In this document: positions 10,282 through 62,693 of the stretch, piece after piece | Numbering within the stretch: position 1 is the stretch's first letter | Layout of the letters: each line of letters opens with the position of its first letter | From: Candidatus Latescibacterota bacterium | GTDB taxonomy: Bacteria > Latescibacterota > UBA2968 > GCA-2709665 | Assembly: GCA_965203805.1 (NCBI GenBank) | Contig: OZ241917.1 | Span: 1,376,001-1,440,000, forward strand | Reading direction: 5' to 3' | Length of the DNA: 64,000 bases | Notes under the pieces: model-generated | Seen by the model: the letters and a program-made list of their open reading frames with translations, nothing else | The model's database searches: none | What the model was told of the DNA's origin: nothing | Made by a program: the position numbers and the translations under genes

Positions 10282-10284
10282 CAG

Positions 10285-43739: not shown

Positions 43740-43769
43740 CGGGGTTCCTTTAGCCTACGTGATTTACAA

Positions 43770-44712: not shown

Positions 44713-44768
44713 CTATATTACTCCTCAGCCGACCCCGCGGGTGCGCGGCGCCGTTCTTCCGCGTATAT

Positions 44769-45365: not shown

Positions 45366-45446
45366 TGCAATTGACCCTCGCCGAGCCCGGAGCCCGGCAT
45401 CAACGCACTCCCCGGAAAACCGGTAGACATCATTCGCGCCCCGACA

Positions 45447-46028
45447 TCAGTCCGGCCGATCGTATTTGGCCGTGTCGCCCGATACAACCTGGAATACCTG
45501 AAAGCCCTTGACTGGCAACCACATATAGATCCGGAAACAGCTTCTACAGACGAACAGGATATGGTCGTTGGACACGGACGAGTACAGACGTTCGTGCAGC
45601 CCTTCCTTCCCGTATTTTCGCTCAATATACGCCATGATTTCCGAGGGGATTCCACGCAGCGCGGATTTCAGCGCATCGGTATCGACGATCAAAGCGGGTC
45701 GCGACAGGTCGCAGCCACAGGCGCACTGGCGATCGATCAACTCCCAGTCCATGCGGTGCGGGCGATTGTCGCTGAACCAGCGCCAGTCGTAAACGCGCTT
45801 GCACTTCGGACAGACCTCGTACTTCTCCGGCTCCCCGGGCATTTCCTCTTCCTGAATCAGCCGCCGTACCTGTTCCGCTTCGTCACGCGGCAAACGTTCG
45901 ATCGGCGCCGTCGATTTCATACACCATCTGCATCGACGTATCCGGTGCTTCGTCAGAAACACGACGACGATAACCGCAGCCATAACGCCTGCTGTAAAGA
46001 TGGCGATTTCTTCGACGGCAACGTCCAT
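45447..46028 (-). CDS. membrane-anchored Cys-rich (double zinc-ribbon) protein of unknown function, paralogue 1 (most divergent)
   Basis: TM, CRWC, CPKC, CAC, CRSC, YMWLPVKGFQVFQVVS; start set at MDVAVEE by alignment with its paralogues. Confidence 0.78.
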   Translation of the reverse strand: MDVAVEEIAIFTAGVMAAVIVVVFLTKHRIRRCRWCMKSTAPIERLPRDEAEQVRRLIQEEEMPGEPEKYEVCPKCKRVYDWRWFSDNRPHRMDWELIDRQCACGCDLSRPALIVDTDALKSALRGIPSEIMAYIERKYGKEGLHERLYSSVSNDHILFVCRSCFRIYMWLPVKGFQVFQVVSGDTAKYDRPD

Positions 46029-46267
46029 GGAGACGTCCGCTCTGACGTAAACCTGGATCGGATGATTGCGACAGTTGAATTGTTGTGATTTCAGGCAGGT
46101 AATGTACTGTTCAGTATAGCGTTTCGCCGTTCGAAATACAAGCACCGAGACAATGGCGAAACCGGGACATTTCGCGTCATCGTCGACTCACCCAATAGGG
46201 GCCCTTGCAGCGCCGCGTAAGGTGGACGATAGACCGGGAACTCGGCGACCGTTGAGCCCAAATCAGA

Positions 46268-46296
46268 TTGACCGGACGTTCGATTCCGCCTATATT
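46268..46296 (+). promoter_or_regulatory. sigma70-type promoter for the defence operon
   Basis: TTGACC (46268-46273), 17 nt, TATATT (46291-46296), about 150 nt upstream of the helicase start. Confidence 0.55.
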
Positions 46297-46445
46297 GCTC
46301 ACCCTACGTAATTTTACAACTATGTAGTCCATATTCGAGTGCTTTGATCGAAAACCCGAACGATCAAATGGTACCGTGATTCGCAGCGGATAATGGTCCG
46401 CATATTGCATCCGTATGACAATGATATCGGCGAGGGAGTCTTGAT

Positions 46446-49400
46446 TTGAGCGTTGAAACCCCGATTCGTGAAGGACAGACCCTGACAGGACCACAGTTTG
46501 ATGAACCGATGCATGTGGAAACGATCCGCACCAACGGCGTTGGCGTCTGGATTGCCGGGCTCGTCGGTCAGCGAACAGAAAGGTTCCGAAGGGTCACGTT
46601 AACGTCCGATGATATCGCCAATCTGACCATCGCCGACTCCTCGCTCTCGTACGAAGGTGACGGCAGACTACTGCGCATCGGTCTGCAGGCATACTCACTC
46701 GGCATTGCCTACGAGTTCGACCCCTATTTCGGACTATCTATCTCGCGTGTTGATCCACTTCCCCACCAACTCGAAGCCGTCTACGAACACCTTCTCAAGC
46801 TGCCAACGGTACGCTTCCTTCTCGCCGACGACGCGGGAGCGGGCAAAACCATCATGGCGGGACTGTTGATCCGGGAACTCAAACTCCGTGGACTGATCGA
46901 ACGCATTCTCGTGGTGTGCCCCGCAAATCTCGCATTTCAATGGCAACGCGAATTGAACGAAAAATTCGACGAGAAATTCTTTGTACTCAAAGGCGGCGAC
47001 CTACGTGACCAATTCGGCGTCAATCAATGGCTGGAACAAAACCAGATCATTACGTCGCTCGACCTCGCCAAACGCAGCGAAATCCTTCCTGGATTGGAGC
47101 AGGTTCGGTGGGACCTGGTAATTGTCGACGAAGCGCACCGCATGTCCGCGCGTGATGAGACTCACAAGAGCCAGCGGTACCGCCTTGGGGAAATGCTGCG
47201 GGACAGTGCAGACCACGTGTTGTTACTGACCGCCACGCCACATAAGGGAGATCCACAGAACTTTACCCTGTTCTTGCAGCTACTCGATCGCGACGCATAC
47301 GCCGATGTCAGTTCCATCCGCGAGGCAATGAATCAAAGGCGCGCGCCGTTCTACCTGCGCCGTACCAAAGAAGCCATGGTCTACTTTCCCGAGCGTCAGG
47401 AAAATGGCACGTGGACCGCAAAACCTGTGTTCACCAGACGAATCCCACGCACCGCGGATTTCGCAATCGATGGTCCCGAGTTTGAACTTATCGGACAATT
47501 ACCCGATTCGTTAAACGACAATGCACTCGAGCCGCAGCCCACGGCGACGACCCGCGGGCGCGCGCAGTCGGATTCTTAATGGCCTTGTACCAGCGCCGAC
47601 TCGCCTCAAGCACGTACGCTGTACGGCGATCCCTTGAGAATCGGGCGACACGCCTGGAGAAGGGCCTCAAGGAAGCACAGGTCCTGGTACAGAAAGCGCC
47701 ACCCAACATCCCCGATCCGGAAGACCTTGAGGAACTGGAGGACGCTGAACGCGAGCGACTTGAACGAATTCTCGAGGCAATAACATTGGCCGGAAACGCT
47801 GAGCAGGTACGCGAAGAAATTGCGGAACTCAGGAAGCTTGCGGAAGAAGCAAAGGAGGTCGAAGGCTCCAATGATGAAGCAAAATTAAACACGCTACAGA
47901 AGATCATGCAGGAACAAGGGTTTTTCGAACAGCGGGACCAGCGACTGCTGATTTTTACCGAGTTCAAGGACACACTCGACTATCTGATGCAACGCTTAAA
48001 GGACTGGGGCTTCAGCGTCGGCTGCATCCATGGCGGGATGAAACCAGGTTCTCGAGACGAACCCGGAAGCCGGCTCCATACCGAACAACAGTTCCGCGAA
48101 GGCAACATTCAGGTTCTCGTCGCCACTGAAGCTGCCGGAGAAGGGATCAACCTGCAGTGTTGCCACATCCTGTTTAACTACGATATCCCATGGAACCCAA
48201 ACCGACTCGAACAGCGCATGGGCCGCATCCACCGATACGGTCAACGGCGAGACTGCCTGATCTTCAACTTCGTCGCCACCAACACAATTGAAGGGCGGGT
48301 GTTACAACGACTCTTGGAGAAGCTGCAGGAGATCCGCGAAGCCCTTGATGACGACGCGGTATTCAACGTTGTGGGCGAAGTGTTGCCGTCCTCTCGGGTC
48401 GAGCGGGTACTGCGGGAATTTTACGCCGGCAAACTCGGCGAGGAAGACTTTGAAGACCGGCTCTTGAAGGACGTCGACGAAGGGAAGTTTCGGTCTATTT
48501 GCCAGACGGCGCTGGAAGGTCTGGCCTCCAGGAGGCTGAATCTGGACATGCTGATTGAGCGTCGGGCACGTGCGCAAGAGCGTCGTGTCGTTCCAGAAAC
48601 AATTGCACGCTTTATCACGGAGTGCGCCCGAGATGCGAGTCTTAACCTGAAGCCGGTAACTCGCCTAACACATACCTATGAACCTGGTCGAACGCCGACC
48701 GTATTGAAGCGGTACGAAACAGATTCGGACTGGAAACTGCCCGAATTGGCGGTCCGGTATCCTCGGTTGTCCACCGACCGTGACGCGGCCGAAGAACACA
48801 ACCTTGAGTGGGTGACTCCCGGACACCCTCTGTTTGAAGCCCTGCGCCGACACAGTCTGGACCTCAGTCAGGCCGCTTTTGCTAACGGCGCATGCTTCCA
48901 TTCTCTCACACATGACGCCCCGGCGCGTTTCGACTTTTACCGTGCGCGGGTGGTGGACGGTCTCGGAAGAGTTATCCACGAACGGCTGTTCACCGTTGAG
49001 ATATCGAGTGAAGGCGCCCCGAGCCTAAGCGGTCCTGACGCCCTTGGTGACTTGATTCCGACAAAGAACCCGGATAAATTGCCGGAGGTGGCCTCGCTTA
49101 CGGAAGAGACAGCCTGGCTGAACGAGCACGCGCTGCTTCCCTTCATTGAGGAAGTTCGCACGGAGCGGCTGGCCGAGATGGATCGAATTGCCGAGCACGT
49201 AGAACTTTCCTTGACGGAAGTACTTCAGCGGATCGATGAAGAAATAGGCCGCGCCGCTGAAGAAGTCGAGAATGACGTGACCGGCGCCGAAGGTCGCCTG
49301 GCACAGGCCGAAGCCCGACATGGCGAGGTCCTTACGCGACGCGAGCGCAGACGTGAGGAACTTGAACAACAACGCGCGGTAACACTTCAGGCCGTCGAGC

Positions 49401-49831
49401 GGTTGGCAAGCGCACTCGTCCTCCCTCATCCCGAGAACGAGACCCTGGACGTCCGGCGGCTGCGCCCCCATCCTGAAACTGAAATGACCGCCATGCGGGT
49501 GGTTATGGAACACGAAACCGCACAGGGACGCCAAGTGTACGACGTCCATAAGAAAAACCTCGGTTACGACGTCACTAGCCTTGATCTGCGATCAGGCGAA
49601 TTGCGACTGATCGAAGTAAAGGGATTGGCTCGCGACTCAGGTAGCATCCTCCTCACACCGAACGAACGCCGCGTCGCCGAAGATCGTCCTGATTGCTTTT
49701 GGCTCTACGTCGTCACCAACTGCGCGAACGAGCCAGAACTTCAAGAACCGATCAAAGATCCCGCGCGGTATCCGTGGCAGAAAGTGACCAAAGTGGCACA
49801 CTACTATTTAAGCGTGAATGCTCTCAAATAG
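46446..49831 (+). pseudogene. SNF2-family helicase with C-terminal DUF3883 (PD-(D/E)xK-like) domain, split by a 1-nt frameshift near 47488 (pseudogene, split gene or assembly error)
   Basis: ORF 46446-47579 has LLADDAGAGKT, DEAH, TATP; ORF 47579-49831 has LIFTEF, GEGINLQ, WNPNRLEQRMGRIHRYGQ, GYDV...IEVKG. Adding one T at GAACTT^ATCGG gives an open in-frame join, EFELYRTITRFVKRQ...AVGFLMALYQRR. Confidence 0.85.
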
Positions 49832-49889
49832 CCGATTGAATTCACAGAAGCGATCTTGTCGCGTCTCGATATGAGAAAGCACTGTTAGC

Positions 49890-52800
49890 GTGAACGCCCA
49901 CGATCTATACAATGCGGGCACTGTCGACGGAATTATCCCGGAAGGCGATGCCGCGCGCCAAGCAGTTGATTCTCTTCGAGGATATGCGTATCAGGTCCTG
50001 GCGGCGACGCTCGCGTGGCTCGATATCGACGAAGATTGTCAACTGTTTCTGGAAGTCGCAGAAGACTACGCGACCATTGCGAAACATACGCTTGATGCTG
50101 TTCAGGTCAAATACACGAAGGGATCGGGATCGGTCACGCTGAATAGCGAAGATATCCGCAATGCAGTTGTCACGTTTATCGATCTCTTCGAACGAAATCC
50201 TGATATTCAGGTTGAACTCCGTTATTTTACCACATCGGAAATAGGAAAAGAGCAAGCAATTGCTGACCGCCCGGCCGGGATGGCCGGGCTGAAGTATTGG
50301 TGTAAAGTCGCCTCTGGTGCGGACCTTAAGCCCCTCCGCTCAATATTAGAGAGCGAGAAGTTCCCGGAATCCGTAAGGGATTTCGCCAGGGCTCGCTGTG
50401 ACACTGCGCTTCGCCGTGATCTCATTAAGAGAATAAGATGGGATTGCGGTAAGCCGGACTTTTCGACTCTTCGCCACAGACTGGAAGAACGTCTAATTGT
50501 CGTAGGCCGCGACCGATTCAAACTTCCGGCTGCAGTAGCGCGAGGGCTTGCCGATCTTCTGCTCTATCAGGTACTTAAAAAAAGCATCGCGGAGACATCC
50601 CAAGATCGCGTTCTCACGCGCGGAGCCCTTTACTCCGAGATCGATGCCGCCACCCAGATCTCAGTGTCGCAGTGGTCTTTTGACGCTCTTGTGAGATCTG
50701 CCACGCGCAGCATGGCGGGAATGCTTAAAGGAGACTCGGGCCTAAGCAATCCAATTTCCATTTCAGATACAGAATGGCTTATAGACGGTACCACGCTTCC
50801 CGCGCCCCAAGGCATGGTACCACGCGCTGCGCTCGAGTCCGCCGTGGCCGATGCCCTCAGAAATTTCGGCGCGGGCGTGATTGTGGGTAGCAGCGGGCTT
50901 GGGAAGTCGAACCTGTCAAGGGCTGCCGCAGTCGCGCATCCCGGCACCTTCCATATGGTGGGATTTAGAGACATAGGAGCGAACGAAACAAGCCGAATTC
51001 TCGAAATGGTTCTTGCCCGATTCGGGGGGCTGCAGTCGTCAGTTCTGATCCTGGACGACCTTAACCAAATCGACGACACATATGTTAAATTGTCGCTGGC
51101 GCGTGTCATTGAAGGTTCGCGACGGAACAACCGCGTCGTGCTCGTAACATGTGACCGGCGCCCTTCTTCGACTACGTTGGCCAAAATTGGCCTCAATCAA
51201 GGTTGCGTCGTCGAATGTCCGTACTTTTCCGAGAAGGAGGTTTGTTCGCTCGTCATAAAAAATGGAGGTGATCCGAAAAGATGGGGCAAACTCGCCTATA
51301 TCGCCGGAGCCGCCGGCCATCCGCAACTTACTCACGCTTTCGTAATTGGAATGGCGACGAGAAGATGGCCAGCTAGTGAGTTTAGAGACCTCATTAATCG
51401 TGGCATGTCTACCGAAGAGATCGATGCCACTCGCCTCGAAGTTCGACGGAGTTTGGTTTCTCGGCTTCCTGAGGAAACACGGAACCTTCTGTATCGGCTT
51501 AGCCTTACGATCGGACGCTTCAATCGGTCTACGGCGTTGGCCATAGGTGAGATACGCCCACAACTGTCCCGAGCTGGGGAATCTATCGACCAGCTCGTCG
51601 GACCGTGGATAGAACCCGTCGGACAAGATTTATTCCGCGTTTCCCCGCTTGCAAGTAGCATTGGGCGTGAGATGTTGTCTCCTGACGTCCAACAACGCAT
51701 CCATGAAATCCTCGCAGTCCAGATGCTCAGAAAACGCACGATCGATGCACGCGACGCCGACACAATATTGGCACATGCGATATTAGGCAAGTCACCGCAA
51801 AGCTTATTTTCGATCGCTCAAGGTGTGCTGTCGGCTGATCCTCTCAACGTCGAGATGCTTTCGGAACAGTTCTTACTCTTGCGCTTCGCCCGAGCCGACG
51901 TGCCAATCTTGGCGGATGATCCCTTTGTCTCTGGAATTGTTCGGCTCGCGCAATTCAAGCTTGCGGCGGCTACCGGTAAATCAGCCGAGATCGCAGAAAT
52001 CGCGACAACGTTTTACAACGAAATTCGGTGCATGCCAGCTGGCGAACTGAAGTCCGCCCTTGAAGCAATGGGGGTCTTCGTCGTGCTCGGTACGATGGGA
52101 GTCGCGAACCATATTGACAACTGGGTCACCCTATTACTTGAATTTAAGACTTCAGGAATAAACAATGCTTTTTTTCAGGACAGGATTGCCGGTGCCATGT
52201 CCGATCTGGATGGATTGAATTACGTTGACGCGCTTTTTGACCTCGGAAGTGCTGGTCTCACTTCAATAGGTAAACTTGAACAAATCATCAACGAACTCGA
52301 CAAACTGAATGAGAGCGACCGAGCGCTGTTGTTGACGCAGACAGACGAAACGTCCTCCGATTATTCAGTGTTAATCAACGGCACTTGGGCTGCACAGACA
52401 AACCGCGCGGATTTTGACGCGTGCGACGCCGCAGTTCGTTACCAGCGGATGGCGAAAATGACGCGGAGTTGGGGTATCCGCACGTTCTCACTCCAATGTT
52501 CGGTTGCCCAAGCGGTGATCCTTGACGAGCATGAGAACAAGAAAGATCGTGCTGTGGAAGTTCTCAACGAGACAGCTACGGCCCTGGGCGACGACCCAAT
52601 CCTTCGTAGCGCTTTAGCGAATATTCACTCGCGCCATCATGAAAATCAGGCCGCCTTCGAAATCTATCGTAGTTTGGCGGATCATGTTGGCGGAACCGAT
52701 CCAGCTGAGCGTGCGTTCTTGCTGCGTAAGGCGGCTATGAGCGCTGCAAAATGCGACGAATGGTCGCTAGCGGCAACCTGGTTTCTTGACGCGCAGAGTG

Positions 52801-53999
52801 CTGCTGAATTAGCCGAAGGCGATACAATGGACGCGTTCGCGATCGGCTTGGGGGCCGACTCGGCGGTGGCCGCTCTTAAGGCTGGAAATGTAGTCCAGGC
52901 GTTTAAGCGCCTTGCGGACTCGTTACAGGCCTTAGCTGACGTTGACCCAGAAGCGACATTGCAAGCGACATACTGCCACCTTGTTATTCGCCAAACCGTA
53001 CTTTGGGCACAATTCCAAATCGAGGGAAGCAAAGCCCTGATTGGCGGAGAGCGTATAGGAATGGAGCCGGGTTCCTGCAGCAATCCAAGTCCCTCGCCCG
53101 CAATCCGGGAACAGCCACTTGCACATATTGATGTCGCCTGGTATATGTTGGCTAAGGCGGAGGCCACCGCCGACATCGACGCAGGAATCTCAGCGACGCT
53201 TGTCGATCGCTTGGCGCAGGGTCCCATCCCAGCAATGGAAGTAGACCTGCGGACGAAAGCAATACAAGCGCACATCAATAGGCTCGATGCCAAGAGGTTT
53301 ACGGCTCATTTCATGCCCTACGTTGAATCGGCCGTATACTTGTCAAAGGAAACCCGTCGATTTCGGCCGACGTTCGATCCGTTGGCGCCGGAAAGAGGAC
53401 TGATACCCGCGCTGGACGAAAATCAGCCGTTTGACTCTGCGGCTGAAGAGGCGGCTAATGATGCCATCATTGCCTATGGCATCATTTCTTCAATGAAAGA
53501 ACAACCTGACGCCATGAAGGAGCTTGAAAACGCCTTAGAATGCCGATTCACCGGCCAGTTTCCCGGTAAACAGTTATTCGCATATTGGCACAAGAAGACT
53601 GGGGCTCTTTCGCAACTTGATCAAACTGTGGTAACGATCGCGAAAACGCATCTTCGTAACGAGCACGTGGAACCCTATTTTTTTTGGATGACCGGGCTAC
53701 GTTTCTTTGAGAGGATCAACCAATCTATGTTCAAGGATCTCCTTACACCCCGGCTCGCCGCCTGGCAGAGGGCTGGTTGGAAGCGAATAATAGCTGTAGA
53801 GTCGTTTCGCCTTACAAGACCTAGACATACTGTGCCCCCTATTGAGAAAATTCTGGCGATACCGGTCGATGATCGGCGCTTTGTCGCAAGGCTTCTTCTT
53901 GCAACCTCCGAGGCCGTCGACTCTCCCTCTCCCCTGGGGTCGGCGTACCGTCGTAGCCTTAAGGCTATGGCAAGGAATGAAGAATCGCACAAGGAATGA
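49890..53999 (+). CDS. large putative defence protein: Cap4/DUF4297-like nuclease + P-loop (STAND-like) NTPase + helical-repeat C-terminus (Avs-like)
   Basis: N-terminal RGYAYQ...LEVAEDY...AVQVK; Walker A GSSGLGKS; Walker B VLILDD; AGHPQL (GxP-like); long Ala/Leu-rich helical C-terminus; 1369 aa. Confidence 0.68.
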   Translation: MNAHDLYNAGTVDGIIPEGDAARQAVDSLRGYAYQVLAATLAWLDIDEDCQLFLEVAEDYATIAKHTLDAVQVKYTKGSGSVTLNSEDIRNAVVTFIDLFERNPDIQVELRYFTTSEIGKEQAIADRPAGMAGLKYWCKVASGADLKPLRSILESEKFPESVRDFARARCDTALRRDLIKRIRWDCGKPDFSTLRHRLEERLIVVGRDRFKLPAAVARGLADLLLYQVLKKSIAETSQDRVLTRGALYSEIDAATQISVSQWSFDALVRSATRSMAGMLKGDSGLSNPISISDTEWLIDGTTLPAPQGMVPRAALESAVADALRNFGAGVIVGSSGLGKSNLSRAAAVAHPGTFHMVGFRDIGANETSRILEMVLARFGGLQSSVLILDDLNQIDDTYVKLSLARVIEGSRRNNRVVLVTCDRRPSSTTLAKIGLNQGCVVECPYFSEKEVCSLVIKNGGDPKRWGKLAYIAGAAGHPQLTHAFVIGMATRRWPASEFRDLINRGMSTEEIDATRLEVRRSLVSRLPEETRNLLYRLSLTIGRFNRSTALAIGEIRPQLSRAGESIDQLVGPWIEPVGQDLFRVSPLASSIGREMLSPDVQQRIHEILAVQMLRKRTIDARDADTILAHAILGKSPQSLFSIAQGVLSADPLNVEMLSEQFLLLRFARADVPILADDPFVSGIVRLAQFKLAAATGKSAEIAEIATTFYNEIRCMPAGELKSALEAMGVFVVLGTMGVANHIDNWVTLLLEFKTSGINNAFFQDRIAGAMSDLDGLNYVDALFDLGSAGLTSIGKLEQIINELDKLNESDRALLLTQTDETSSDYSVLINGTWAAQTNRADFDACDAAVRYQRMAKMTRSWGIRTFSLQCSVAQAVILDEHENKKDRAVEVLNETATALGDDPILRSALANIHSRHHENQAAFEIYRSLADHVGGTDPAERAFLLRKAAMSAAKCDEWSLAATWFLDAQSAAELAEGDTMDAFAIGLGADSAVAALKAGNVVQAFKRLADSLQALADVDPEATLQATYCHLVIRQTVLWAQFQIEGSKALIGGERIGMEPGSCSNPSPSPAIREQPLAHIDVAWYMLAKAEATADIDAGISATLVDRLAQGPIPAMEVDLRTKAIQAHINRLDAKRFTAHFMPYVESAVYLSKETRRFRPTFDPLAPERGLIPALDENQPFDSAAEEAANDAIIAYGIISSMKEQPDAMKELENALECRFTGQFPGKQLFAYWHKKTGALSQLDQTVVTIAKTHLRNEHVEPYFFWMTGLRFFERINQSMFKDLLTPRLAAWQRAGWKRIIAVESFRLTRPRHTVPPIEKILAIPVDDRRFVARLLLATSEAVDSPSPLGSAYRRSLKAMARNEESHKE

Positions 54000-54150
54000 G
54001 CTAAGTTGGCCGTACGCGATATTCTTTCCGTCCCGGAGCAATGGCAAATCGACAGCCATCGATTCGGGATCGGTCGATCAGATTATCTGTGTATCAGGTT
54101 GCGGTAGATTTCTTTGAAACCATCCTTCTCTGTGTGGAGGAACGCGAACC

Positions 54151-57120
54151 TTGATCCCTAGCGAATGTAAACGCCTCGCTGAGGTCGACTTCCCGATCGA
54201 GGAGGTTTCGCGACACGCGGCAAAAGAGAAGTCCATTCGACATGGCCACCCCTCGACCCTTCACTTGTGGTGGGCGCGACGACCGTTGGCCTCGTCAAGG
54301 GCCGTTTTGATGGCGTTGCTTTTGCCGGACCCTTGTGATGAATACTGTCCCGAGGAGTTTAAGAAAAAAGCTCGTGAGAGCCTTCTTTGTCTTAATGGAC
54401 GACCACAAGGTTGGACGACTGCCATCCGATCAGATGAAGGATTGAGCCGCATCATTTTAAAGTTCATCGCCGACTTTGCCGATTGGAAGAACGCGGCGAA
54501 TAGCGATTACTTGAAGACAGGCAGGGCGCTGGTGAAGGCGGCACACGGCGAGGAGCCACCGCTGGTGGTTGACCCTTTTGCAGGCGGGGGCTCAATTCCG
54601 TTGGAGGCGTTGCGGCTGGGTTGCGAGGCGTTCGCGAGCGATCTGAATCCGGTGGCGTGCCTGATCCTCAAAGTGATGCTGGAGGACATCCCACGCCACG
54701 GACGGGGGCTAGCTGACGAGTTGCGTCGCGTCGGCAGAGATATAAAGCACGATGCTGAACTCGAGTTCGCGGATCTGTACCCCAGAGACCCAGATGGTGC
54801 AACGCCGATTGCCTATTTGTGGGCGCGCACGGTGCGTTGCGAAGCGCCCAAATGCGGCGCAGAGATTCCGCTGATGCGTTCGTTCTGGCTGTGCAAGAAG
54901 GCCAAGCGCAAACGGGCATTGCGGCATCGAGTGGAACGGAGCGAAGTTGGGCCGGCGCGCGTCGAATTCGAGATCTTTGAACCGGACTCGGACGACGAAG
55001 TCCGAAGCGGGACAGTGACCCGCGCCAAAGCCACCTGCCTTTGCTGCGGTGCGGTGCTGCCGCCGGAGCGAGTGCGGGCGCAACTTGCGGCTGAGCGGGG
55101 CGGGGCGGATGTGATTTTTGACGCAGAGGGACGACGGACAGGTGGGGCGCGGATGACGGCAGTGGTGACGATCAAGTCTGGGGAGGCCGGGCGGCACTAT
55201 CGGCTGCCGACAAACGCGGATTACGCGGCGGCGCGAAGGGCTCATGAGCGTGTATCGCAGTATTTGATCGAATGGGAGAAGGAAGGGAAGCACGGACCTC
55301 GTCCGGTGCCGGATGAGCCGACACCTGCTGGAGGCGGATCGGGTGCGGGTCGTGCATTCAGCTTGCAACGCTACGGTATGATGCAGTGGGGCGACTTGTT
55401 TACGGCGCGGCAGAAGGCTGCTTTGGTGGGGTTAGGGACGCTACTCTCCACTGAATGCTCAAGAAACTATGAATTGGCCAAATCATTACTCGTGGGTCGG
55501 ATGGCGGACTTCCTTGTTTCCTTAGCACGATGGAAACCAGATGCAGAGTGCCCTGTTCAGGCTCTTGCTCGACAAGCGGTGCCAATGGTTTGGGATTTTG
55601 TTGAAGCTAACCCGTGGAGTGGTGCCACGGGTTCAATTGAAAGCCAAGCCAAACGAATGGCAGATTCTGTTGAATCGGTATGTATTCCGTTCGAGGATAC
55701 TGGACAAATTGAGCACATAGACGCTACCGCCCACCCACTCCCTGACCAGACCGCAGGAGTCTGGTTTACCGACCCACCCTATTACGACGCCATACCCTAT
55801 TCCGATCTCTCCGACTTTTTTTTCGTATGGCTCAAGCGGACGCTGCCAGATCACCCGTTGCTACGCGATCCGTTCGATCCACACAACCCACTCTCGCCTA
55901 AGACGGCCGAGGCCGTACAGGACGAAACCAAGCAAGCCGACGGCCTACCCAAAAACCGCGAGTGGTTTGAGGAAACAATGGCGAAAGCCTTCGCCGAGGG
56001 TCGCCGCGCGCTAAGCGAGGATGGCGTTGGCTCGGTGGTCTTCGCTCACAAAACCACCGAGGGCTGGGAGGCGTTGCTCTCCGGTATGATTCGAGGAGGT
56101 TGGACCATCACCGGCTCTTGGCCGATTGCAACCGAAATGGCGTCGCGCCTGCGAGCCCGCGAGTCCGCCGCTCTCGCCACCAGCATCCACCTTATCTGCC
56201 GCACCCGTCCCGATGATGCCGGCATCGGCGACTGGGGTGACGTCCTACGAGAATTGCCCGTTCGCGTCGCGGAATGGATGCAGCGCTTACAGCGCGACGG
56301 CATTCGTGGTGCTGATCTGGTGTTCGCCTGCATCGGTCCTGCGTTGGAGATATTCAGCCGCTTTCGTAAAGTTGAGACCGCCGAGGGTAAGACAGTCGCC
56401 CTGGCCGAGTACCTCGAGCGGGTATGGGAAGTGGTCGGTCGTGCCGCGTTGCAACAGGTACTCGGGGCTGCCCAGGCCGGCGCGCTCGAAGAGGACGCAC
56501 GCCTGACAGCGCTCTTTCTTTGGACTTTACAGACCACTGAAGTGCGTTCAGACGACGGGAAACCGGAGCAGCCAGAGGAGGAAGGGGCCATTACAGCTAC
56601 CGCAAAGGGCTTAAGCCTACCCTTTGACGTCGTGAGGCGATTTGCCCAGCCCATGGGCATCAACCTCGATACCTGGACTGACCGCATTATCGGCCAGGAA
56701 AAAGGCGTTGTACGCCTGCTGCCGGTGTCAGAGCGCGCAGGAAGTCTCTTTGGTGCGGAAGGGACAACTATGGTCGCTGAACGTATCGAACGCGATCCAC
56801 ATTGGGATGTTCAACAGAAACTCTTTGCGAATTTGGACGGGCCTGCGCCATCACTCGTTCGCGAACCTAGGATAGGATACGGCGAATCGGCTGACGACGA
56901 ATCCGATCGGGCGCCTGGCGACACCACGCTCGACCGCGTACACGCCGCGATGCTATTTCAGTCGAGCGGACACGCCAACGCATTGAGGGAATTGATTGGC
57001 GCAGAACAGGATCGCGGCCCAGACTTCCTTCGACTTGCGAATGCGTTGTCGGCGCTGTATCCAAGAGGCAGCAACGAGAAACGCCTGCTGGACGCTATGC
57101 TGCTGGCAGTTCCAAGGTAG
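54151..57120 (+). CDS. DUF1156-domain amino-DNA methyltransferase with zinc ribbon
   Basis: RLAEVDFP, EKSIRHGHPSTLHLWWARRPL, DPFAGGGSIPLEA (SAM binding), DLNPVA, YLWARTVRCEAPKCG, TCLCCG, FTDPPYYD; GGAGG RBS before TTG. Confidence 0.92.
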   Translation: MIPSECKRLAEVDFPIEEVSRHAAKEKSIRHGHPSTLHLWWARRPLASSRAVLMALLLPDPCDEYCPEEFKKKARESLLCLNGRPQGWTTAIRSDEGLSRIILKFIADFADWKNAANSDYLKTGRALVKAAHGEEPPLVVDPFAGGGSIPLEALRLGCEAFASDLNPVACLILKVMLEDIPRHGRGLADELRRVGRDIKHDAELEFADLYPRDPDGATPIAYLWARTVRCEAPKCGAEIPLMRSFWLCKKAKRKRALRHRVERSEVGPARVEFEIFEPDSDDEVRSGTVTRAKATCLCCGAVLPPERVRAQLAAERGGADVIFDAEGRRTGGARMTAVVTIKSGEAGRHYRLPTNADYAAARRAHERVSQYLIEWEKEGKHGPRPVPDEPTPAGGGSGAGRAFSLQRYGMMQWGDLFTARQKAALVGLGTLLSTECSRNYELAKSLLVGRMADFLVSLARWKPDAECPVQALARQAVPMVWDFVEANPWSGATGSIESQAKRMADSVESVCIPFEDTGQIEHIDATAHPLPDQTAGVWFTDPPYYDAIPYSDLSDFFFVWLKRTLPDHPLLRDPFDPHNPLSPKTAEAVQDETKQADGLPKNREWFEETMAKAFAEGRRALSEDGVGSVVFAHKTTEGWEALLSGMIRGGWTITGSWPIATEMASRLRARESAALATSIHLICRTRPDDAGIGDWGDVLRELPVRVAEWMQRLQRDGIRGADLVFACIGPALEIFSRFRKVETAEGKTVALAEYLERVWEVVGRAALQQVLGAAQAGALEEDARLTALFLWTLQTTEVRSDDGKPEQPEEEGAITATAKGLSLPFDVVRRFAQPMGINLDTWTDRIIGQEKGVVRLLPVSERAGSLFGAEGTTMVAERIERDPHWDVQQKLFANLDGPAPSLVREPRIGYGESADDESDRAPGDTTLDRVHAAMLFQSSGHANALRELIGAEQDRGPDFLRLANALSALYPRGSNEKRLLDAMLLAVPR

Positions 57121-57332
57121 TGGACAAAATCCCACTGTCGGACGTAATACAACCGAAGCCCCGCGAACACCAGCGGTCACTCTGACTGATTGACCTGAAC
57201 GAAACGGGTCGACAGTAGCGCCTGCGCCGTCACCCCGCACGCGTTCATCGACAAAGATGCGCTGAACGTTCTCCCATTTCCTGAACCGTAAAACGACCTT
57301 ACGCGAAAAGTATCGGCTTCACCGAGGCAATC

Positions 57333-59015
57333 GTGATCCGGCGAGTTACGATAACGAACTTCAAGCGTTTCCGAAACCAGGCCTTTGAACTGGCGGACTC
57401 AGTCGTACTGGCCGGACCGAACAATGCAGGTAAGTCCACGTTACTCCAGGCGATTACAATGTGGAAGTTCGGTCTGGACCGCTGGATTTCTCAGCGCGTG
57501 GGAGGCAGGGCCGTTACCAGGTCCGGCATTGCGATACCGCGAGCCGATATTACTGCTGTCCCGCTCCGTGAAATGAATTTGCTCTGGGAAGATCGCCGGG
57601 TCACCGGGCCGCGCGGGATGTCGGGCAGCCGGCGGCTTATCGAAATCGTCGTCGAAGGCGAAGCGAACGGGGAATCCTGGACCTGTGGCATCGAACTCCA
57701 GTACGCCAATCCCGAGTTGGCATACGTACGGCCACTGGACGCGAAAAGTCTCGATAGAGAAACCTTGCGAAATTTCCCTCCGGAGGCGGCGCGGCAACTC
57801 AATATCGTTCACGTTCCTCCGCTTTCCGGCGTTGAGCGCGATGAGCCGCGGCGTGACAGAGGAATGCAGGACCTGTTGGTGGGACAGGGTCGGCCAGGCG
57901 AAATCCTGCGCAATCTCCTCCTGGAGATCGCCGAGAGCAAAGAAAGAGGGCGTTGGTTATCTCTTGCACGTCACATCAAGGAACTCTTTCGGATCGAATT
58001 GCTTAAGCCTGTCTATTCTCCTGCGCAACCATACATTGTGTGCGAGTACCGAGAGCCGGGGCACACCCGGCCACTGGATCTCTCAAACGCAGGAAGCGGT
58101 ACACTGCAAGTGCTTCTCTTATTCGCGTTCCTGTATGCCCGTCCCGCAACGGTGATATTGCTTGACGAGCCGGACGCCCACCAGCACGTCATTCTTCAAC
58201 GACAGGTCTACGACCTCATTCGCAAAGTTGCGCACGAACGTGGCGGGCAGATTATTGTTGCGACACATTCTGAGGTCGTTCTTGATGCGACTGAGCCCGA
58301 GCGGGTGATCGGGCTTTTTGGAAGCGCGCCGCGTTCGCTGGCTAGCGAGACGGAACGGAATCAACTCAGGGAGGCACTTAAACGCGTTACCACGACCGAT
58401 CTGTTGCTGGCTCAGGAAGTCGGCGCCGTTCTCTACGTTGAAAGCGAGACTGACGAAAGGATCCTCTCGGTATGGGCGCATCTCCTGGATCATCCTGCTC
58501 GACGATTCTTCGAGCGGCCTTTTGTCCATTGGTTGAGCGGACGAAGCCTGCGCGAGGCGAAAGCACATTTTTTCGCAATGCAAGCAGTGTTTCCAGGGCT
58601 GCCCGCAGTCTGTCTTCTCGACGGAGACAATCTCGACAGACCAGACTCCGAAATGACGGGCGCCGGCCTCGAGCTACTTCGGTGGCGTCGCTACGAGATT
58701 GAAAATTACCTCTTACAGCCGGAGGCAATAAAGCGTTTTGTCGACTTCCCGCTTATGAATTCAAAAATTGAAGCCGCGTTCTGGAGTCAAGTGCCCCGCG
58801 GTACCGATCTCTTTGGAAACCACGTGTCGTTAGAACGCGTAAAAGCCAGCGACGAGTTTCTTGTGCCACTTTTGGACGAGGTTGGCAAGAGGACACCGAA
58901 GCGAGATCTATATTTGTTAGCTACGACTATGGAGGAAGAGGAGATCCATCCCGAGATACGCGAAAAACTCGATCGCATCGCAGCATCGCTCAATACGCGT
59001 GAGTCGTCAGAATAG
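57333..59015 (+). CDS. ABC-type ATPase fused to TOPRIM-like domain (OLD/PARIS-like ATP-dependent nuclease)
   Basis: ITNFKRF, GPNNAGKS (Walker A), LSNAGSG (signature), LLDEPDAHQH, ATHS; TOPRIM LYVESETD, LLDGD, RRYEIENYLL. Confidence 0.82.
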   Translation: MIRRVTITNFKRFRNQAFELADSVVLAGPNNAGKSTLLQAITMWKFGLDRWISQRVGGRAVTRSGIAIPRADITAVPLREMNLLWEDRRVTGPRGMSGSRRLIEIVVEGEANGESWTCGIELQYANPELAYVRPLDAKSLDRETLRNFPPEAARQLNIVHVPPLSGVERDEPRRDRGMQDLLVGQGRPGEILRNLLLEIAESKERGRWLSLARHIKELFRIELLKPVYSPAQPYIVCEYREPGHTRPLDLSNAGSGTLQVLLLFAFLYARPATVILLDEPDAHQHVILQRQVYDLIRKVAHERGGQIIVATHSEVVLDATEPERVIGLFGSAPRSLASETERNQLREALKRVTTTDLLLAQEVGAVLYVESETDERILSVWAHLLDHPARRFFERPFVHWLSGRSLREAKAHFFAMQAVFPGLPAVCLLDGDNLDRPDSEMTGAGLELLRWRRYEIENYLLQPEAIKRFVDFPLMNSKIEAAFWSQVPRGTDLFGNHVSLERVKASDEFLVPLLDEVGKRTPKRDLYLLATTMEEEEIHPEIREKLDRIAASLNTRESSE

Positions 59016-59045
59016 CGATTCTCCATTATCCATAGGAACTCAGGA

Positions 59046-61844
59046 ATGCCTCTCGATCCCTGGTACAGGGCAACTACGCTTCGCAAGGAAGTACGGGAAG
59101 GTCGTTCGTTCAGCCCGGACGAGTTCGCGATTGCCCTCGAGCAGGTCGTCAACGGAAGTGCGCCGGAGGATTACAGCGATCCGGTCCAGTTTTTCTCGCG
59201 TACCTGTTTTACACGGGCATTGAATGAGCATACAGGTATGGTTCTGAGACGCCTTTTCGGGAGGACGGAAAACACAGCCCCGGTGTTAACACTCGTCACT
59301 CAGTTTGGTGGTGGCAAAACTCATACGCTGACAGCGCTCTACCACATTGCAAACATGGGAACCAATGCCTCCGGATTGCCGGGCCTTGCAGGTCTCCTGA
59401 ACGAGGCAGGCGTGTCCCGTGTCCCCGGCGTTAAAGTTGGCGTGTTCGTCGGCAATGCCTGGGACCCCTCGGAAGGACGGGAGACGCCCTGGATCGATCT
59501 GGCCCGGCAATTGGCTGGCGATAAGGGCGTTGCTTCGCTCGGCGGCGCGGCACGGAATACCCCACCAGGTACCGAGGCACTCAGCAAAGTGTTCGCGGAT
59601 GCGGATGCGCCTGTACTGCTGCTCTTCGATGAAGTCCTCAACTTCGTGAACCGACATCGAGGCCTGGCCGAGAGTTTTCACGCCTTTCTCCAGAATATGA
59701 CCGTAGCAATCACCGGGACCACTCACGCCGCTGCTGTTATCAGTTTGCCGCGAAGTCAGGTAGAGATGACCGACTGGGATCAGCAATGGCAGGACCGTAT
59801 AACCAAAGTCGTGCGCCGAGTCGCCCGCGACCTGATCGCCAATGATGAGTCCGAGATCAGTGAAGTTGTCCGCCGCAGACTATTTGAGAACCTCGGTAAA
59901 GATCGGGTACGCAAAAAAGTATCGAAAGCATACGCCGACTGGTGCTTTGAACGAACGGCACGACTCCCGTCCGAATGGTTGGCGGTCGATACGGCAACTA
60001 CAGAAGCGAGGGCAAAGGAGTTTTTGCGGAGTCGATTCGAAGCGTGTTATCCGTTTCACCCCGCAACGCTTTCGGTGTTTCAGCGTAAATGGCGAGCGCT
60101 TCCCCAATTTCAACAGACCCGGGGAGCTCTCGCCCTGCTGGCGCAATGGGTTTCATGGGCCGCAAGGCAGCAATTCAACAAAGCCCGTCGTGAGCCCCTG
60201 ATTACGCTGGGTTCAGCGCCATTGGATGTGCCCGAATTTCGGGCCGTTGTCCTTGGGCAGTTGGGTGAGGCCCGGCTTGACGTGGCAATTGACGCGGACA
60301 TTGCAGGCCGAGTGTCCCACGCGAGATCCCTTGATAAGGACGCCACGGGCGCACTTCGCGACATTCACCGGCGCGTGGGTACGACCATCCTGTTCGAGTC
60401 ATCCGGCGGGCAGGTGGATAAGGTTGCCCATTTGCCTGAACTGCGCTTTGCCCTGGGAGAGCCCGAAGTCGATACCGCCACCATAGACAACGCCGCGACA
60501 GATCTGGAAAAATCCGGTTTTTTCATCCGGAAGGTGGGTACGGACGGCTATCGTATCCACCACCAGGCCACATTAAAAAAGGTCGTAAGTGACCGTTTGG
60601 CATCGCTTGACGAAGATGCGGATATCAACCCGGCTATTCGTAAACTCATCCTGGCTGAATTCAAATCCGGCGCAACCCTACCGGTGGTCGAATTTCCAAA
60701 GGAGAGCGCCGATATCCATGATTCGCCGCGCCTCGTCCTTGTCGTCGCCGACCCCGATACCCAATTTTCAGATTCTTCCAATGGACATCCGCGCCAATCC
60801 GTGACTGTGAAGCGCATCCAAAATTGGACTACGGAACGCGGCAGTTCGCCGAGGCTTTACCCGGGCTCGTTGGTTTGGTGCGTCTGTAGACCGGGGCGAG
60901 AGCTCCGTCAGAAAGTGGAGCTATGGCTCGCTTGGCAGCGGATTGAACACGAAATACGCGAGGGCGTACTTGGCGTTGAATACGACCGCTCGGACTTCAC
61001 TGACGTCCGGACGCAGGTCAAAGATGCCCACGAGGCTGCCAAAGACGAAGCATGGGCGAGTTATCGCTTCGTCGCACTTGCGGACACACGAGAAGAGCAC
61101 GGCCTCAAGATCATCGATCTCGGCGCAGGTCATGCAAGTACTGGGGAGACCCTGTGCGGTCGAGTCCTCGGCGCCCTCAAGGGTGAGGCCCTCCTTAACG
61201 AATCCGTAGGCGCCGGCTATATCGAGCGGCACTGGCCACCGGCGTTTTCGGAAACCGCGGCCTGGCCGCTGACCAGCCTGCGTCAGAGTTTTCTTAATGG
61301 ATCGCTCACCCGGTTGATCGATCCGGACACGATTCTCCGTCGTAGGATTGTTGAGTTCGTAAAGAATGGTGACTTCGGCCTGGCCTCCAGACCCACGGAC
61401 AACGGTCGATACGAGCGAACTTGGCACGCAGAGGCCATCGAAGCCGAAGAAGTGGCGTTCGAGCCAAACGTCTTCCTGATCACAAAGAAGAAAGCGGCGG
61501 AACTTAAAGCAACGACCCCGGAACCGACACATCCGCATCCTGAACCAATTCCACAACCAGAACCTGATCCCCACCCGGGGCCTGACCCAGCACCTGAACC
61601 GGTACCGAGTCCCGGCCACGAAAAAACCACCGTCAGACTTTCAGGTTCGTTGCCTTCCGAAGTCTGGAACCGTCTTGGTACCAAACTGCTGCCCAAACTG
61701 CGCGCAGGAGAGGACTTTAGTTCGCGAATCGATCTTTCAGTACGTATCGACGCCTGGTCAGCCGAGAACACAATCAACGAATTGCGGCGAATTCTCGATG
61801 ACCTTGGCATAGTCGACCAGATTCAAATCGACGTTTCGGATTGA
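59046..61844 (+). CDS. DUF499 family AAA+ ATPase
   Basis: DPWYRATTLRKEV, DEFAIAL, TQFGGGKTHTL, LLLFDEV, EVVRRRLFE, YPFHP, FQQTRGAL. Confidence 0.9.
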   Translation: MPLDPWYRATTLRKEVREGRSFSPDEFAIALEQVVNGSAPEDYSDPVQFFSRTCFTRALNEHTGMVLRRLFGRTENTAPVLTLVTQFGGGKTHTLTALYHIANMGTNASGLPGLAGLLNEAGVSRVPGVKVGVFVGNAWDPSEGRETPWIDLARQLAGDKGVASLGGAARNTPPGTEALSKVFADADAPVLLLFDEVLNFVNRHRGLAESFHAFLQNMTVAITGTTHAAAVISLPRSQVEMTDWDQQWQDRITKVVRRVARDLIANDESEISEVVRRRLFENLGKDRVRKKVSKAYADWCFERTARLPSEWLAVDTATTEARAKEFLRSRFEACYPFHPATLSVFQRKWRALPQFQQTRGALALLAQWVSWAARQQFNKARREPLITLGSAPLDVPEFRAVVLGQLGEARLDVAIDADIAGRVSHARSLDKDATGALRDIHRRVGTTILFESSGGQVDKVAHLPELRFALGEPEVDTATIDNAATDLEKSGFFIRKVGTDGYRIHHQATLKKVVSDRLASLDEDADINPAIRKLILAEFKSGATLPVVEFPKESADIHDSPRLVLVVADPDTQFSDSSNGHPRQSVTVKRIQNWTTERGSSPRLYPGSLVWCVCRPGRELRQKVELWLAWQRIEHEIREGVLGVEYDRSDFTDVRTQVKDAHEAAKDEAWASYRFVALADTREEHGLKIIDLGAGHASTGETLCGRVLGALKGEALLNESVGAGYIERHWPPAFSETAAWPLTSLRQSFLNGSLTRLIDPDTILRRRIVEFVKNGDFGLASRPTDNGRYERTWHAEAIEAEEVAFEPNVFLITKKKAAELKATTPEPTHPHPEPIPQPEPDPHPGPDPAPEPVPSPGHEKTTVRLSGSLPSEVWNRLGTKLLPKLRAGEDFSSRIDLSVRIDAWSAENTINELRRILDDLGIVDQIQIDVSD
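61516..61614 (+). repeat. Pro-X dipeptide linker within the DUF499 ATPase
   Basis: PEPTHPHPEPIPQPEPDPHPGPDPAPEPVPSP precedes a small C-terminal domain. Confidence 0.75.
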
Positions 61845-61990
61845 GAGCACCTACGCGAAGGCACACGAAAAGAGCCAGATTTCGGCACGCTCTCTCACGT
61901 CTCAACAGTGTATTTTGTGTTCGTTAGAAATCAGATCGGGCTAGTCGGGGAAGTTCGAATTCGCCGTTTTTCTATAGGCATGAGCAAGCG

Positions 61991-62317
61991 ATGAAGACAA
62001 CAGGAATTGACCAGAGTACGCTAGACGAGATCATCCGGCGCGTCGTTGATGTCGCCCGGCCGGAAAAGATCATCCTGTTCGGGTCCGCCGCCCGGGGCGA
62101 GATGAACCGTCACAGCGACGTGGACTTGCTTATTATCAAAGACGGCGCGGATGCGCTTGAACTTATGGGCGAAATCTATATGAATCTCGATGGCGTCGGC
62201 GCAGCTGTCGACGCTGTTGTCGTAACGCCCGACGATTTAGAGCGGTATCGGGATAGTCACGCTGTGATCATCAAGCCCGCGTTGAAAGAAGGCAGGGTCG
62301 TATATGAATCCTCCTGA
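61991..62317 (+). CDS. minimal nucleotidyltransferase (MNT) antitoxin
   Basis: IILFGSAARGEMNRHSDVDLLII (GS-x10-DxD), 108 aa. Confidence 0.9.
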   Translation: MKTTGIDQSTLDEIIRRVVDVARPEKIILFGSAARGEMNRHSDVDLLIIKDGADALELMGEIYMNLDGVGAAVDAVVVTPDDLERYRDSHAVIIKPALKEGRVVYESS

Positions 62318-62693
62318 GCGATTCCCACCCGATGATCCGCGGGAATGGCTGAACCGCGCCAGAAGTAGCCTGGCAATCGCGAATAACCGAATTCCTGACG
62401 TTTACCTGGAAGACCTGTGCTTTGAAGCCCAGCAGGCAGCCGAAAAGGCCATCAAAGCCGTGATGATCAAGCGAGGCGTCGATTTCCCGTATGTACATGA
62501 CCTTGCCCGATTGCTTTCCCTGCTCAAAGAAGCGGACGAATCGATCCCAGACGTCGTCGGACAGGCCGGAAAGCTCACTCGATTCGCCACAATCACTCGC
62601 TATCCGATGAACCAGGCAGTCACTGATCAGCACTATCTGGAGGCGCTGTCCACCGCCGAAGCAGTCGTTCGGTGGGCGGAGGGGCGTGTGTGA
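62304..62693 (+). CDS. HEPN domain protein (partner of MNT)
   Basis: EWLNRA, CFEAQQAAEKAIKA, HDLARLL, TRYP; overlaps the MNT gene by 14 nt. Confidence 0.9.
   Translation: MNPPERFPPDDPREWLNRARSSLAIANNRIPDVYLEDLCFEAQQAAEKAIKAVMIKRGVDFPYVHDLARLLSLLKEADESIPDVVGQAGKLTRFATITRYPMNQAVTDQHYLEALSTAEAVVRWAEGRV

Follow-up and report, generated by a model that had tools for sequence, protein, structure and literature searches.

The window analysed here is a 64,000-nucleotide (nt) stretch of contig OZ241917.1 from a Candidatus Latescibacterota bacterium. At 46446-61844 it carries an Hma (helicase, methylase, ATPase) operon, a restriction-modification-like defence system, and each gap between the hma genes holds one self-contained, predicted defence module that probably acts on its own; the helicase gene hmaA is broken here. 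A probability of roughly 85% is given to this reading as a whole. The operon consists of five co-oriented genes on the + strand, which are read as six open reading frames (ORFs) owing to the loss of one base in the helicase gene, and which are separated by intergenic spacers of 58, 151, 212 and 30 nt in operon order. An initial annotation of this DNA had described five co-oriented, closely spaced genes at 46446..61844, and the ORF list and domain searches bear this out.

46446..49831, + strand: hmaA, Snf2 helicase with C-terminal NOV_C/DUF3883 PD-(D/E)xK nuclease, broken; ORFs 46446-47579 (377 amino acids, aa) and 47579-49831 (750 aa); PADLOC HmaA, Pfam
47487..47489, + strand: hmaA frameshift site, loss of one base in a short run of T; tblastn frame switch, contigs of public runs
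49890..53999, + strand: cargo 1, Avs-like, Cap4/DUF4297-type nuclease with putative STAND-type NTPase and TPR-like repeats, 1369 aa; PADLOC, alignment, Foldseek
54151..57120, + strand: hmaB, DUF1156 N6-adenine-type DNA methyltransferase, 989 aa; PADLOC HmaB, Pfam DUF1156, DPPY at aa 541
57333..59015, + strand: cargo 2, OLD-like ABC ATPase with probable C-terminal TOPRIM, 560 aa; Pfam, alignment, Foldseek, hhalign
59046..61844, + strand: hmaC, DUF499 ORC/Cdc6-like ATPase with P-loop FGGGKTHT, 932 aa; PADLOC HmaC, Pfam DUF499

The chassis is in the PADLOC catalogue as Hma; another name for this system is Type-1 DUF499-centred BREX-related (BR). The first hmaA ORF matches the PADLOC HmaA model at 4.1e-70 (profile positions 35-319) and Pfam SNF2-rel_dom/ResIII, and the second matches it at 1.5e-92 (profile positions 375-1132), along with Pfam Helicase_C and NOV_C (DUF3883, 3.3e-21); the C-terminus of HmaA carries GYDV...IEVKG. 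HmaB is recognised by PADLOC at 1.7e-113 and by Pfam DUF1156 at 3.4e-23, with VDPFAGGG at aa 140 in addition to the DPPY motif, and HmaC by PADLOC at 5.8e-92 over aa 1-850 and by Pfam DUF499 at 1.5e-14. The hma genes stand in A-B-C order on one strand, with one copy of each. Neither DUF3780 nor an HKD/PLD domain was matched in the six operon proteins or in the flanking ORFs, and the helicase ends in NOV_C. Given the length of the spacers, there is no room for a further gene.

Hma was defined as a three-gene operon by Payne et al. 2021 (PMC8565338), and Liu et al. 2024 (PMC11232893) report that HmaA defends against T4, for which it uses both the helicase and the nuclease domain. In a later survey (NAR 2026, PMC12839542), Hma was renamed the Type-1 DUF499-centred BREX-related system and split from a Type-2. 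The curation rule stated in the Payne et al. 2024 preprint accepts three hma genes on one strand, each present once and none of them a pseudogene. The locus in the window agrees with this rule in strand and copy number, and fails its pseudogene clause by the deletion in hmaA. Therefore, strict PADLOC-style curation would drop this locus.

The initial annotation had compared the chassis with a system of DUF499, DUF3780, DUF1156 and SNF2 helicase genes, and had presented the helicase-methylase-ATPase order without DUF3780 as a departure from it. Such a DUF499-DUF3780-DUF1156-helicase system is said to go back to Gao et al. 2020. By PADLOC, this was the wrong system for comparison, since the chassis in the window is Hma, or Type-1 BR; the order and the missing DUF3780 were described correctly, and they amount to the definition of Hma. 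The DUF3780-containing system fits Type-2 BR as that system is described in the survey (NAR 2026, PMC12839542). The possibility that the arrangement matches a catalogued model had also been raised, and this holds for the three-gene chassis through the PADLOC Hma models. All of the domains named at the outset were recovered (SNF2, DUF3883, Cap4-like, DUF1156 with DPPY, ABC ATPase and DUF499), apart from the TOPRIM part, which matches no Pfam or PADLOC model.

The content of the gaps was compared across orthologous loci. HmaC was searched in 168 genomes of the phylum, and full-length orthologs of 72-84% identity were found in 22 other genomes, from which 21 loci were fetched (G123, whose contig starts at hmaC, was left out). 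With the window included, all 15 visible gaps between hmaA and hmaB (A-B gaps) hold genes over 0.8-8.2 kb, and 21 of the 22 visible gaps between hmaB and hmaC (B-C gaps) hold 1.2-5.7 kb; the gap of 283 nt in L074 is empty. The contents vary, and include ThsB-TIR, PIN, HEPN, Schlafen, YhcG nuclease, HerA, a ClpP-like protease, AAA_21 with DUF4276, a DUF433-PIN pair and insertion sequence (IS) elements. The OLD-like gene occupies the B-C gap in 7/23 orthologous loci, window included, and the Cap4-STAND gene lies directly upstream of hmaB in two of the 15 A-B gaps, namely in the window and in L063 (70% identity). A coral-metagenome contig of 6581 nt (run X5) covers 48251-54831 without gaps and with 71 differences, Cap4-STAND gene included. 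HmaC-family genes occur in 61/168 genomes of the phylum, often in multiple copies, and the genome of the window itself has five DUF499 loci, the other four of which carry different cargo in the same gaps.

L011, C1 214-234 kb: CBASS cyclase (2.5e-113) with 2TM effector, OLD-like ATPase-TOPRIM protein, DEAD helicase
L012, C1 433-449 kb: HEC-04 (3.1e-43)
L013, C1 4355-4374 kb: PDC-M68/ABC-3C; reversed, Type-2-like order
L014/L015, C1 4534-4573 kb: PD-T4-4-like, Ppl (3e-128), Schlafen, PDC-M38, HEC-01, M78 peptidase, two IS elements

The largest DUF499 locus of this genome is about 34 kb long and contains two IS elements. Its hmaB (L014:12977-16684) encodes a protein of 1235 aa, in which Pfam finds a segment resembling a Y1 transposase (IS200; aa 332-408, 3.8e-7).

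The filled gaps and their variable content support well the suggestion in the initial annotation that the junctions are exchangeable cargo slots. It had also proposed collecting homologous loci and tabulating their junction genes, and across the 22 other genomes the contents do differ. The slots are already published. According to the Payne et al. 2024 preprint, which deals with 'guilt by embedding' and the HEC systems, 931 of 1,485 Hma systems hold embedded genes, and Liu et al. 2024 (PMC11232893) give insertions in 66.5% of hma systems and describe a hotspot at which defence genes insert. OLD-ABC/TOPRIM, HEPN(+MNT) and Schlafen modules are described as embedded in the Hma systems of many taxa (NAR 2026, PMC12839542). 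The pattern in the window is thus an ordinary example of Hma embedding, in print since 2024 and implied in 2021, and no new layered system is needed to explain it.

Both cargo families look autonomous, because both also occur away from Hma. For the OLD-like gene, orthologs of at least 73% identity were found in 14 other genomes, and 13 of their loci were fetched (the remaining contig is 1.5 kb long). Six of the 13 lie in Hma loci, one (L046) lies by a PglZ gene, and the other six lie more than 10 kb from any Hma gene or on contigs without one in that range. Of these last six, five sit amid housekeeping genes, three of them between a PAS histidine kinase gene and a sigma-54 response regulator gene; in the sixth (L058), a protein kinase/FGE-sulfatase gene is the sole recognised neighbour, and the two other scanned neighbours matched nothing. 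The sample for the Cap4-STAND gene is small, since the related-locus search with that single protein gave 5 loci, and eight contexts were compared. One is in Hma, one is between hsdM and hsdR (L003), one is by hsdS/hsdR (L002), two are in other defence-like or mobile surroundings, and three are ordinary (L005, L077 and L078). Autonomy of this kind is to be expected for embedded systems, according to the Payne et al. 2024 preprint.

The initial annotation had offered another role, in which the embedded proteins act as fail-safe guards of the restriction complex by analogy with PrrC. In such a layered system, the Hma complex would silence the Avs-like and OLD-like proteins, which would fire once a phage inhibitor disables Hma, as PrrC does with EcoprrI. 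The operon does run on one strand with short spacers throughout, the OLD-like gene recurs at the same B-C position in 7/23 orthologous loci, and published discussions propose a back-up or guard role for the ABC ATPase modules that sit inside Hma and BREX (Payne et al. 2024, Discussion; NAR 2026, PMC12839542), so the idea itself is not new. The contexts speak against it, however, given that 6/13 OLD-like and 7/8 Cap4-STAND loci are free of Hma, whereas PrrC is almost exclusively embedded by the account of Payne et al. 2024. Moreover, the genes that share the gaps differ between loci, and the presumed guarded effector, HmaA, is broken in the window while its 'guards' are intact. The guard role thus finds no support in these comparisons and is considered quite improbable.

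A single new five-gene system, with all five proteins as obligate subunits of one machine, is scarcely credible. Tight co-orientation is the sole observation in its favour. Among the 23 orthologous chassis, both cargo genes were seen together in the window alone: in G055 the Cap4-STAND gene is present and the OLD-like gene is not, and of the six other loci with the OLD-like gene, the three with the A-B gap in view hold other genes and no Cap4-STAND gene. In addition, the three chassis genes are catalogued as a system by themselves. The reading of an Hma operon with independent cargo in each gap is therefore retained.

Cargo 1, the module in the A-B gap, is called Avs-like, with no named Avs family assigned. 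The protein consists of a Cap4/DUF4297-type nuclease (about aa 20-250), a P-loop NTPase (about aa 295-585) and TPR-like helical repeats (about aa 600-1369). Its N-terminus matches PADLOC LmuA at 4e-12 (aa 23-247), and Pfam Cap4_nuclease matches the N-terminal piece at 1e-3. The Walker A motif spans G333-K339 and is followed by D390; E55, E58, D59 and K74, which form a PD-(D/E)xK signature, are invariant in 49/49 aligned homologs, as are G333, G336, G338, K339 and D390. The family, almost unannotated and of roughly 1365 aa, counts 638 proteins at E<=1e-3 among 8000 candidates scored; identity to the best 120 homologs is 48-75% along almost the whole protein.

A structure model of cargo 1 covering aa 1-1200, with a mean predicted local distance difference test score (pLDDT) of 77.7, finds by Foldseek a STAND-TPR protein first (6mfv, 5.3e-8) and Avs3 bound to terminase second (8dgc, 3.7e-7), followed by SAMD9, Apaf-1 and MalT. 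Beyond the nucleotide-binding fold, the model has a helical part at 448-537 and a beta-hairpin or winged-helix-like part at 543-584. The TPR-like repeats at aa 723-1152 reach VIA Z values of up to 14.5, which is a range that helical repeats reach easily, and hence is weak. In a profile search against the PDB, cargo 1 found AAA+ proteins (VCP-like, 3e-6) and a DUF4297 protein (8ziq, 3e-3), with no STAND or Avs entry. At E<=0.01, PADLOC returned LmuA and DUF4297 alone for the whole protein, nothing for aa 301-1369, and no Avs model. Two Cap4-STAND homologs elsewhere (L001:12055-13307 and L003:11707-12838) are split by DDE_3 (IS630-type) transposase inserts of about 1.1-1.25 kb, at query aa 686 and aa 570, respectively.

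Cargo 2, in the B-C gap, has an ABC head at aa 1-351 that matches Pfam AAA_21 (1.1e-22) and AAA_15 (8.1e-21). Its ATPase motifs are a Walker A of GPNNAGKS and a Walker B of DEPD, with G28-K34, G254/G256, D278/E279 and H312 invariant. In a structural second look at aa 1-351, VIA gave PtuA at Z 18.4, together with SMC, Rad50 and AriA. The whole model (pLDDT 84.6) finds by Foldseek the Thermus scotoductus OLD nuclease first (6p74, 7e-12, 601 aligned columns), and GajA at 1.4e-11. The family is large, with 3699 proteins at E<=1e-3 among 8000 scored, and conserved, with the best 120 clusters 71-95% identical.

The C-terminal domain of cargo 2 is likely a TOPRIM, judging from conserved residues and the model. 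E370, D374, D430, E455 and E457 are invariant, G431 and D432 are present in at least 90% of 48 sequences, and the model shows a beta-alpha-beta pattern at aa 366-450. Alignment by hhalign sets the cargo 2 segment 'VLYVE.eTD' against the beginning of an OLD-like_TOPRIM domain (Pfam) in a protein from a paralogous locus in the same genome (probability 78%, E 1.8e-5). A probable TOPRIM thus extends over about aa 360-460, with a helical tail behind it. Membership of cargo 2 in HEC-04 was considered and rejected: of 139 PADLOC families for this protein, the best 25, down to an E-value of 1.8e-12, do not include HEC-04, and a true HEC-04 from the same genome (L012, 493 aa) scores 3.1e-43.

The helicase gene is broken by the loss of a single base. 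The intact HmaA of the paralogous locus L012 (1153 aa) aligns to hmaA in two frames by tblastn, with '...DGPEFEL' in one frame and 'YRTITRFVKRQ...' in the other, and the switch lies at about 47487-47489. After the lesion, the N-terminal frame reads 30 out-of-frame codons to the TAA at 47577-47579, such that HmaA is cut after the helicase N lobe. The break does not lie at the TAATG overlap at 47579. A natural split of the helicase at this overlap was rejected, given that the frame changes 90 nt upstream and that relatives are single-frame; orthologs elsewhere, such as that in L062, hold both HmaA parts in one frame.

The state of the T run was followed in contigs of public runs. In three runs from two other studies, an extra T stands behind 47487: 4.3 of 4.3 in X4 (labelled sponge metagenome), 29.8 of 29.8 in X5 (labelled coral metagenome) and 36.3 of 36.3 in X8 (an RNA library of the X5 coral study). 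In X3, a second sample of the probable source study, there is no extra T (0 of depth 8.27). By these contigs, the lesion would seem to be a genuine mutation at the level of the strain. Because hmaA carries this deletion, the restriction arm is probably inactive in this strain; the methylase, the ATPase and both cargo genes appear intact.

The same data bear on the idea that the operon is a relic, in which a frameshifted hmaA allows no restriction and the arrangement says nothing of present function. The deletion does truncate HmaA after the helicase N lobe, the X3 contig of a second sample from the same study is in the same state, and a frameshifted hmaB or interrupted hmaA is also found in L050, L052, L063, L065 and L075. 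Against decay, the lesion is single and every other gene is open at full length, near-identical relatives in two other studies keep the frame intact (X4; X5 with X8), and the locus could still serve the cell through its methylase, its ATPase and two autonomous cargo genes. A decaying locus is thus rather unlikely.

Based on the literature on Hma, HmaB, as a DUF1156 methyltransferase, would mark host DNA, HmaC, as a DUF499 ORC/Cdc6-like ATPase, would scan DNA or assemble the complex, and HmaA, with its Snf2 helicase and PD-(D/E)xK nuclease, would be the effector. By analogy with Avs3 and Avs7, the TPR-like sensor of cargo 1 would bind a phage protein, its STAND NTPase would oligomerise and its Cap4 nuclease would cut DNA. 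In the OLD-like cargo 2, the sensor ATPase would license the nuclease. The cargo genes probably share the transcription of the operon and travel with it, and would act independently of it.

Several observations weigh against this account. The functions proposed for the cargo are drawn from likeness of fold and motif, and phage defence is a prediction for all of these genes. The NTPase of cargo 1 matches classical AAA+ proteins as well as it matches STAND (VCP-like, 3e-6; VIA Z about 12). The C-terminal 210 aa of cargo 2 (aa 351-560) give no usable Pfam match (E up to 10; DUF4435 at E 0.29) and no PADLOC match, and the structural second look covered a region outside the TOPRIM part. The OLD-like gene keeps its place directly upstream of hmaC in the seven loci noted above, 30 nt away in the window, and therefore may have a functional link to Hma. 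The frameshift in hmaA, being common to two samples of one study, could be a shared systematic sequencing error. As to co-transcription, a promoter scan of 45800-62600 was at chance (10 sites versus 7.4 +/- 3.1 in shuffles), as was a terminator scan of the same interval (22 versus 19 +/- 4.2), with no terminator-like site in any junction; with both scans at chance, separate transcription of the junction genes cannot be judged from them. X8 RNA-library contigs do lie on hmaA, the Cap4-STAND gene and hmaB, and contigs cannot show transcription. In X5 and X8, depth is zero over 57214-58815, the stretch of the OLD-like gene, and one X5 contig is unlike the window past 57118, which is a hint that cargo 2 is absent from the coral-metagenome relative and is not counted as evidence.

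Cargo in related loci is often bounded by direct copies of the ends of hmaB. A self-comparison of 22 loci (the window and 21 orthologs) was made for extra direct copies of gene segments, with the following result.

First 300 nt of hmaB: extra direct copy in 9/20 loci
Last 300 nt of hmaB: extra direct copy in 7/22 loci
Two internal hmaB segments (controls): 0/22 and 1/22, the single match being an artefact of a truncated gene in L076
hmaA 3' end: 0/15
hmaC 5' end: 2/21
hmaC middle: 0/22

The copies of the 5' end lie between A-B cargo blocks, are 25-281 nt long and 77-97% identical, and 13/16 begin at nt 1-2 of the gene. Those of the 3' end lie between B-C cargo blocks and are 32-138 nt long, and 9/11 finish at the stop codon. 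The orthologous Hma loci that have such copies are L047, L050, L051, L053, L064, L066, L068, L071, L072, L073 and L076, and a distant paralogous locus of the same genome holds a copy of hmaB nt 2-107 between CBASS and the OLD-like gene (L011:7512-7617). In the window, the ends of the hma genes were looked for outside their own genes, and no copies turned up. One cassette can be the first after hmaB in one locus and the second in another, as with the protease cassette in L072, L073 and L047. In 4/6 comparisons between loci, similarity is higher for the cassette than for either of the hma genes that flank it; the other two are equal or mixed.

This pattern fits a single-crossover (Campbell-type) or homology-facilitated insertion of cargo together with a piece of hmaB. 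It is tentatively suggested, at well under even odds, that the hmaB ends act as portable homology anchors for the gain, stacking and exchange of defence cassettes among Hma loci, with no dedicated recombinase; the locus in the window would then represent a clean state, each gap having one cassette, and the two cargo genes would be uncatalogued single-gene defences of the Avs and OLD kinds. Cargo bounded by hmaB-end copies may be a new observation, in that no discussion of such copies was found in the main texts, supplements apart, of Payne 2024, Liu 2024 (PMC11232893) and NAR 2026 (PMC12839542).

Two further observations concern the same genes. In L046 (G050:C11, about 9992-12023), by a PglZ gene and outside an Hma operon, a copy of the OLD-like gene with 97% DNA identity stands before a direct fusion of the first 182 nt of hmaC to the last 130 nt of hmaB, and an AAA_21-DUF4276 pair comes next. 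This looks like cargo that moved along with stubs of the chassis genes. Within hmaB itself, nucleotide similarity is lost over about 300-400 nt (55320-55720, aa ~390-520) in nearly all orthologs and regained on both sides; L067 aligns across. This divergent mid-gene stretch may be a variable target-recognition region.

The operon lies in a low-GC island at about 43000-62500, where GC is 0.52-0.59 versus 0.62-0.66 on either side. The end coordinate of 61844 given by the initial annotation is that of hmaC, and omits an MNT-HEPN pair directly 3' of hmaC at 61991-62693, within the same island. An MNT-HEPN homolog lies inside the locus in 14/23 related loci, mostly just upstream of hmaB, and its position in the window differs from this. 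These two genes and the best promoter-like site are as follows.

46268..46296, + strand: best promoter-like site upstream of hmaA, TTGACC-17-TATATT, 10/12; a consensus match alone from a scan at chance, and no evidence of function
61991..62317, + strand: MNT minimal nucleotidyltransferase, 108 aa, antitoxin-type partner of HEPN; Pfam Polbeta 6e-12, NTP_transf_2 1.9e-10; PADLOC PDC-S09 2.9e-10
62304..62693, + strand: HEPN domain protein, 129 aa, overlapping the MNT gene by 14 nt; Pfam HEPN 1.5e-26

No tRNA gene was found at 36000-64000, and no integrase among the scanned flanking ORFs. At the edge of the island, a gene on the - strand (40470-43739) encodes a protein of 1089 aa. Residues 472-1064 match PADLOC GajB (1.9e-69) as a UvrD/GajB-like helicase, and the first 470 aa are unrecognised. 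Next to it, at 44119-46145 on the - strand, are three ORFs without a family match.

Hma operons with embedded defence genes have already been counted in about a thousand genomes, so the value of this locus is modest: two uncatalogued cargo families and a clue to cargo exchange. The Cap4-STAND-TPR family and the 560-aa OLD-like family are widespread and have no full-length PADLOC v2 model, although the supplementary tables of the Hma papers may list them. By the logic of 'guilt by embedding', each of the two families is a good candidate for a single-gene defence. The hmaB-end copies provide a testable clue to how embedding happens, and the near-identical relatives with intact and broken hmaA offer a natural comparison for the contribution of the helicase.

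Compared with known systems, the chassis agrees with Hma (PADLOC; PMC8565338) in its Snf2-NOV_C helicase-nuclease, DUF1156 methyltransferase and DUF499 ATPase, in the A-B-C order and in the lack of DUF3780, and differs in that hmaA is frameshifted in this strain. In the survey of BREX-related systems (NAR 2026, PMC12839542), an N-terminal HEPN fusion on HmaC is given for 1370/2446 Type-1 BR taxa; HmaC of the window has no such fusion, whereas its paralog L015 in the same genome has one (HEPN_Swt1, 3e-35). Type-2 BR, described in the same survey as having a stand-alone DUF3780 gene in 98% of taxa and an HKD-helicase, shares homologous ATPase, methyltransferase and Snf2 helicase genes with the window, but the window has neither the stand-alone DUF3780 gene nor the HKD-helicase. 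A separate locus of this genome, L013, has a DUF499...DUF1156-helicase order and a PLD/PbeA-like helicase N-terminus.

Avs3 and Avs7 are described as having an N-terminal Cap4 nuclease, a STAND NTPase and a TPR sensor (PMC12803255). Cargo 1 has the same order of a Cap4-type nuclease, a P-loop NTPase with a helical and a winged-helix-like part, and long TPR-like repeats. However, it matches no PADLOC Avs model, its NTPase is equally close to classical AAA+, and at 1369 aa it is shorter than the solved Avs3 chains of about 2000 residues. Cargo 2 resembles class 1 OLD (6p74), GajA, HEC-04 and PARIS AriA/AriB in having an ABC head with signature and H-loop followed by TOPRIM-type E...DxD residues. 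It differs from them in that neither Pfam nor PADLOC recognises its C-terminal 210 aa and that no GajB- or AriB-like partner adjoins it, and its family is unusually conserved, as the identity range of its best 120 clusters indicates.

PrrC in the EcoprrI type I restriction-modification locus likewise combines a nuclease and an ABC-type ATPase, and its gene lies between those of a restriction-modification-like system, but its near-obligate embedding, as described by Payne et al. 2024, is shared by neither cargo family. A further parallel is the embedding already described for Hma (Payne 2024; Liu 2024, PMC11232893), with co-oriented defence genes in the A-B and B-C gaps and ABC ATPase-nuclease modules as the commonest cargo. 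The window differs from it in that neither of its cargo genes has a full-length PADLOC v2 model, the matches being to the LmuA/DUF4297 N-terminus in cargo 1 and to the ATPase parts alone in cargo 2.

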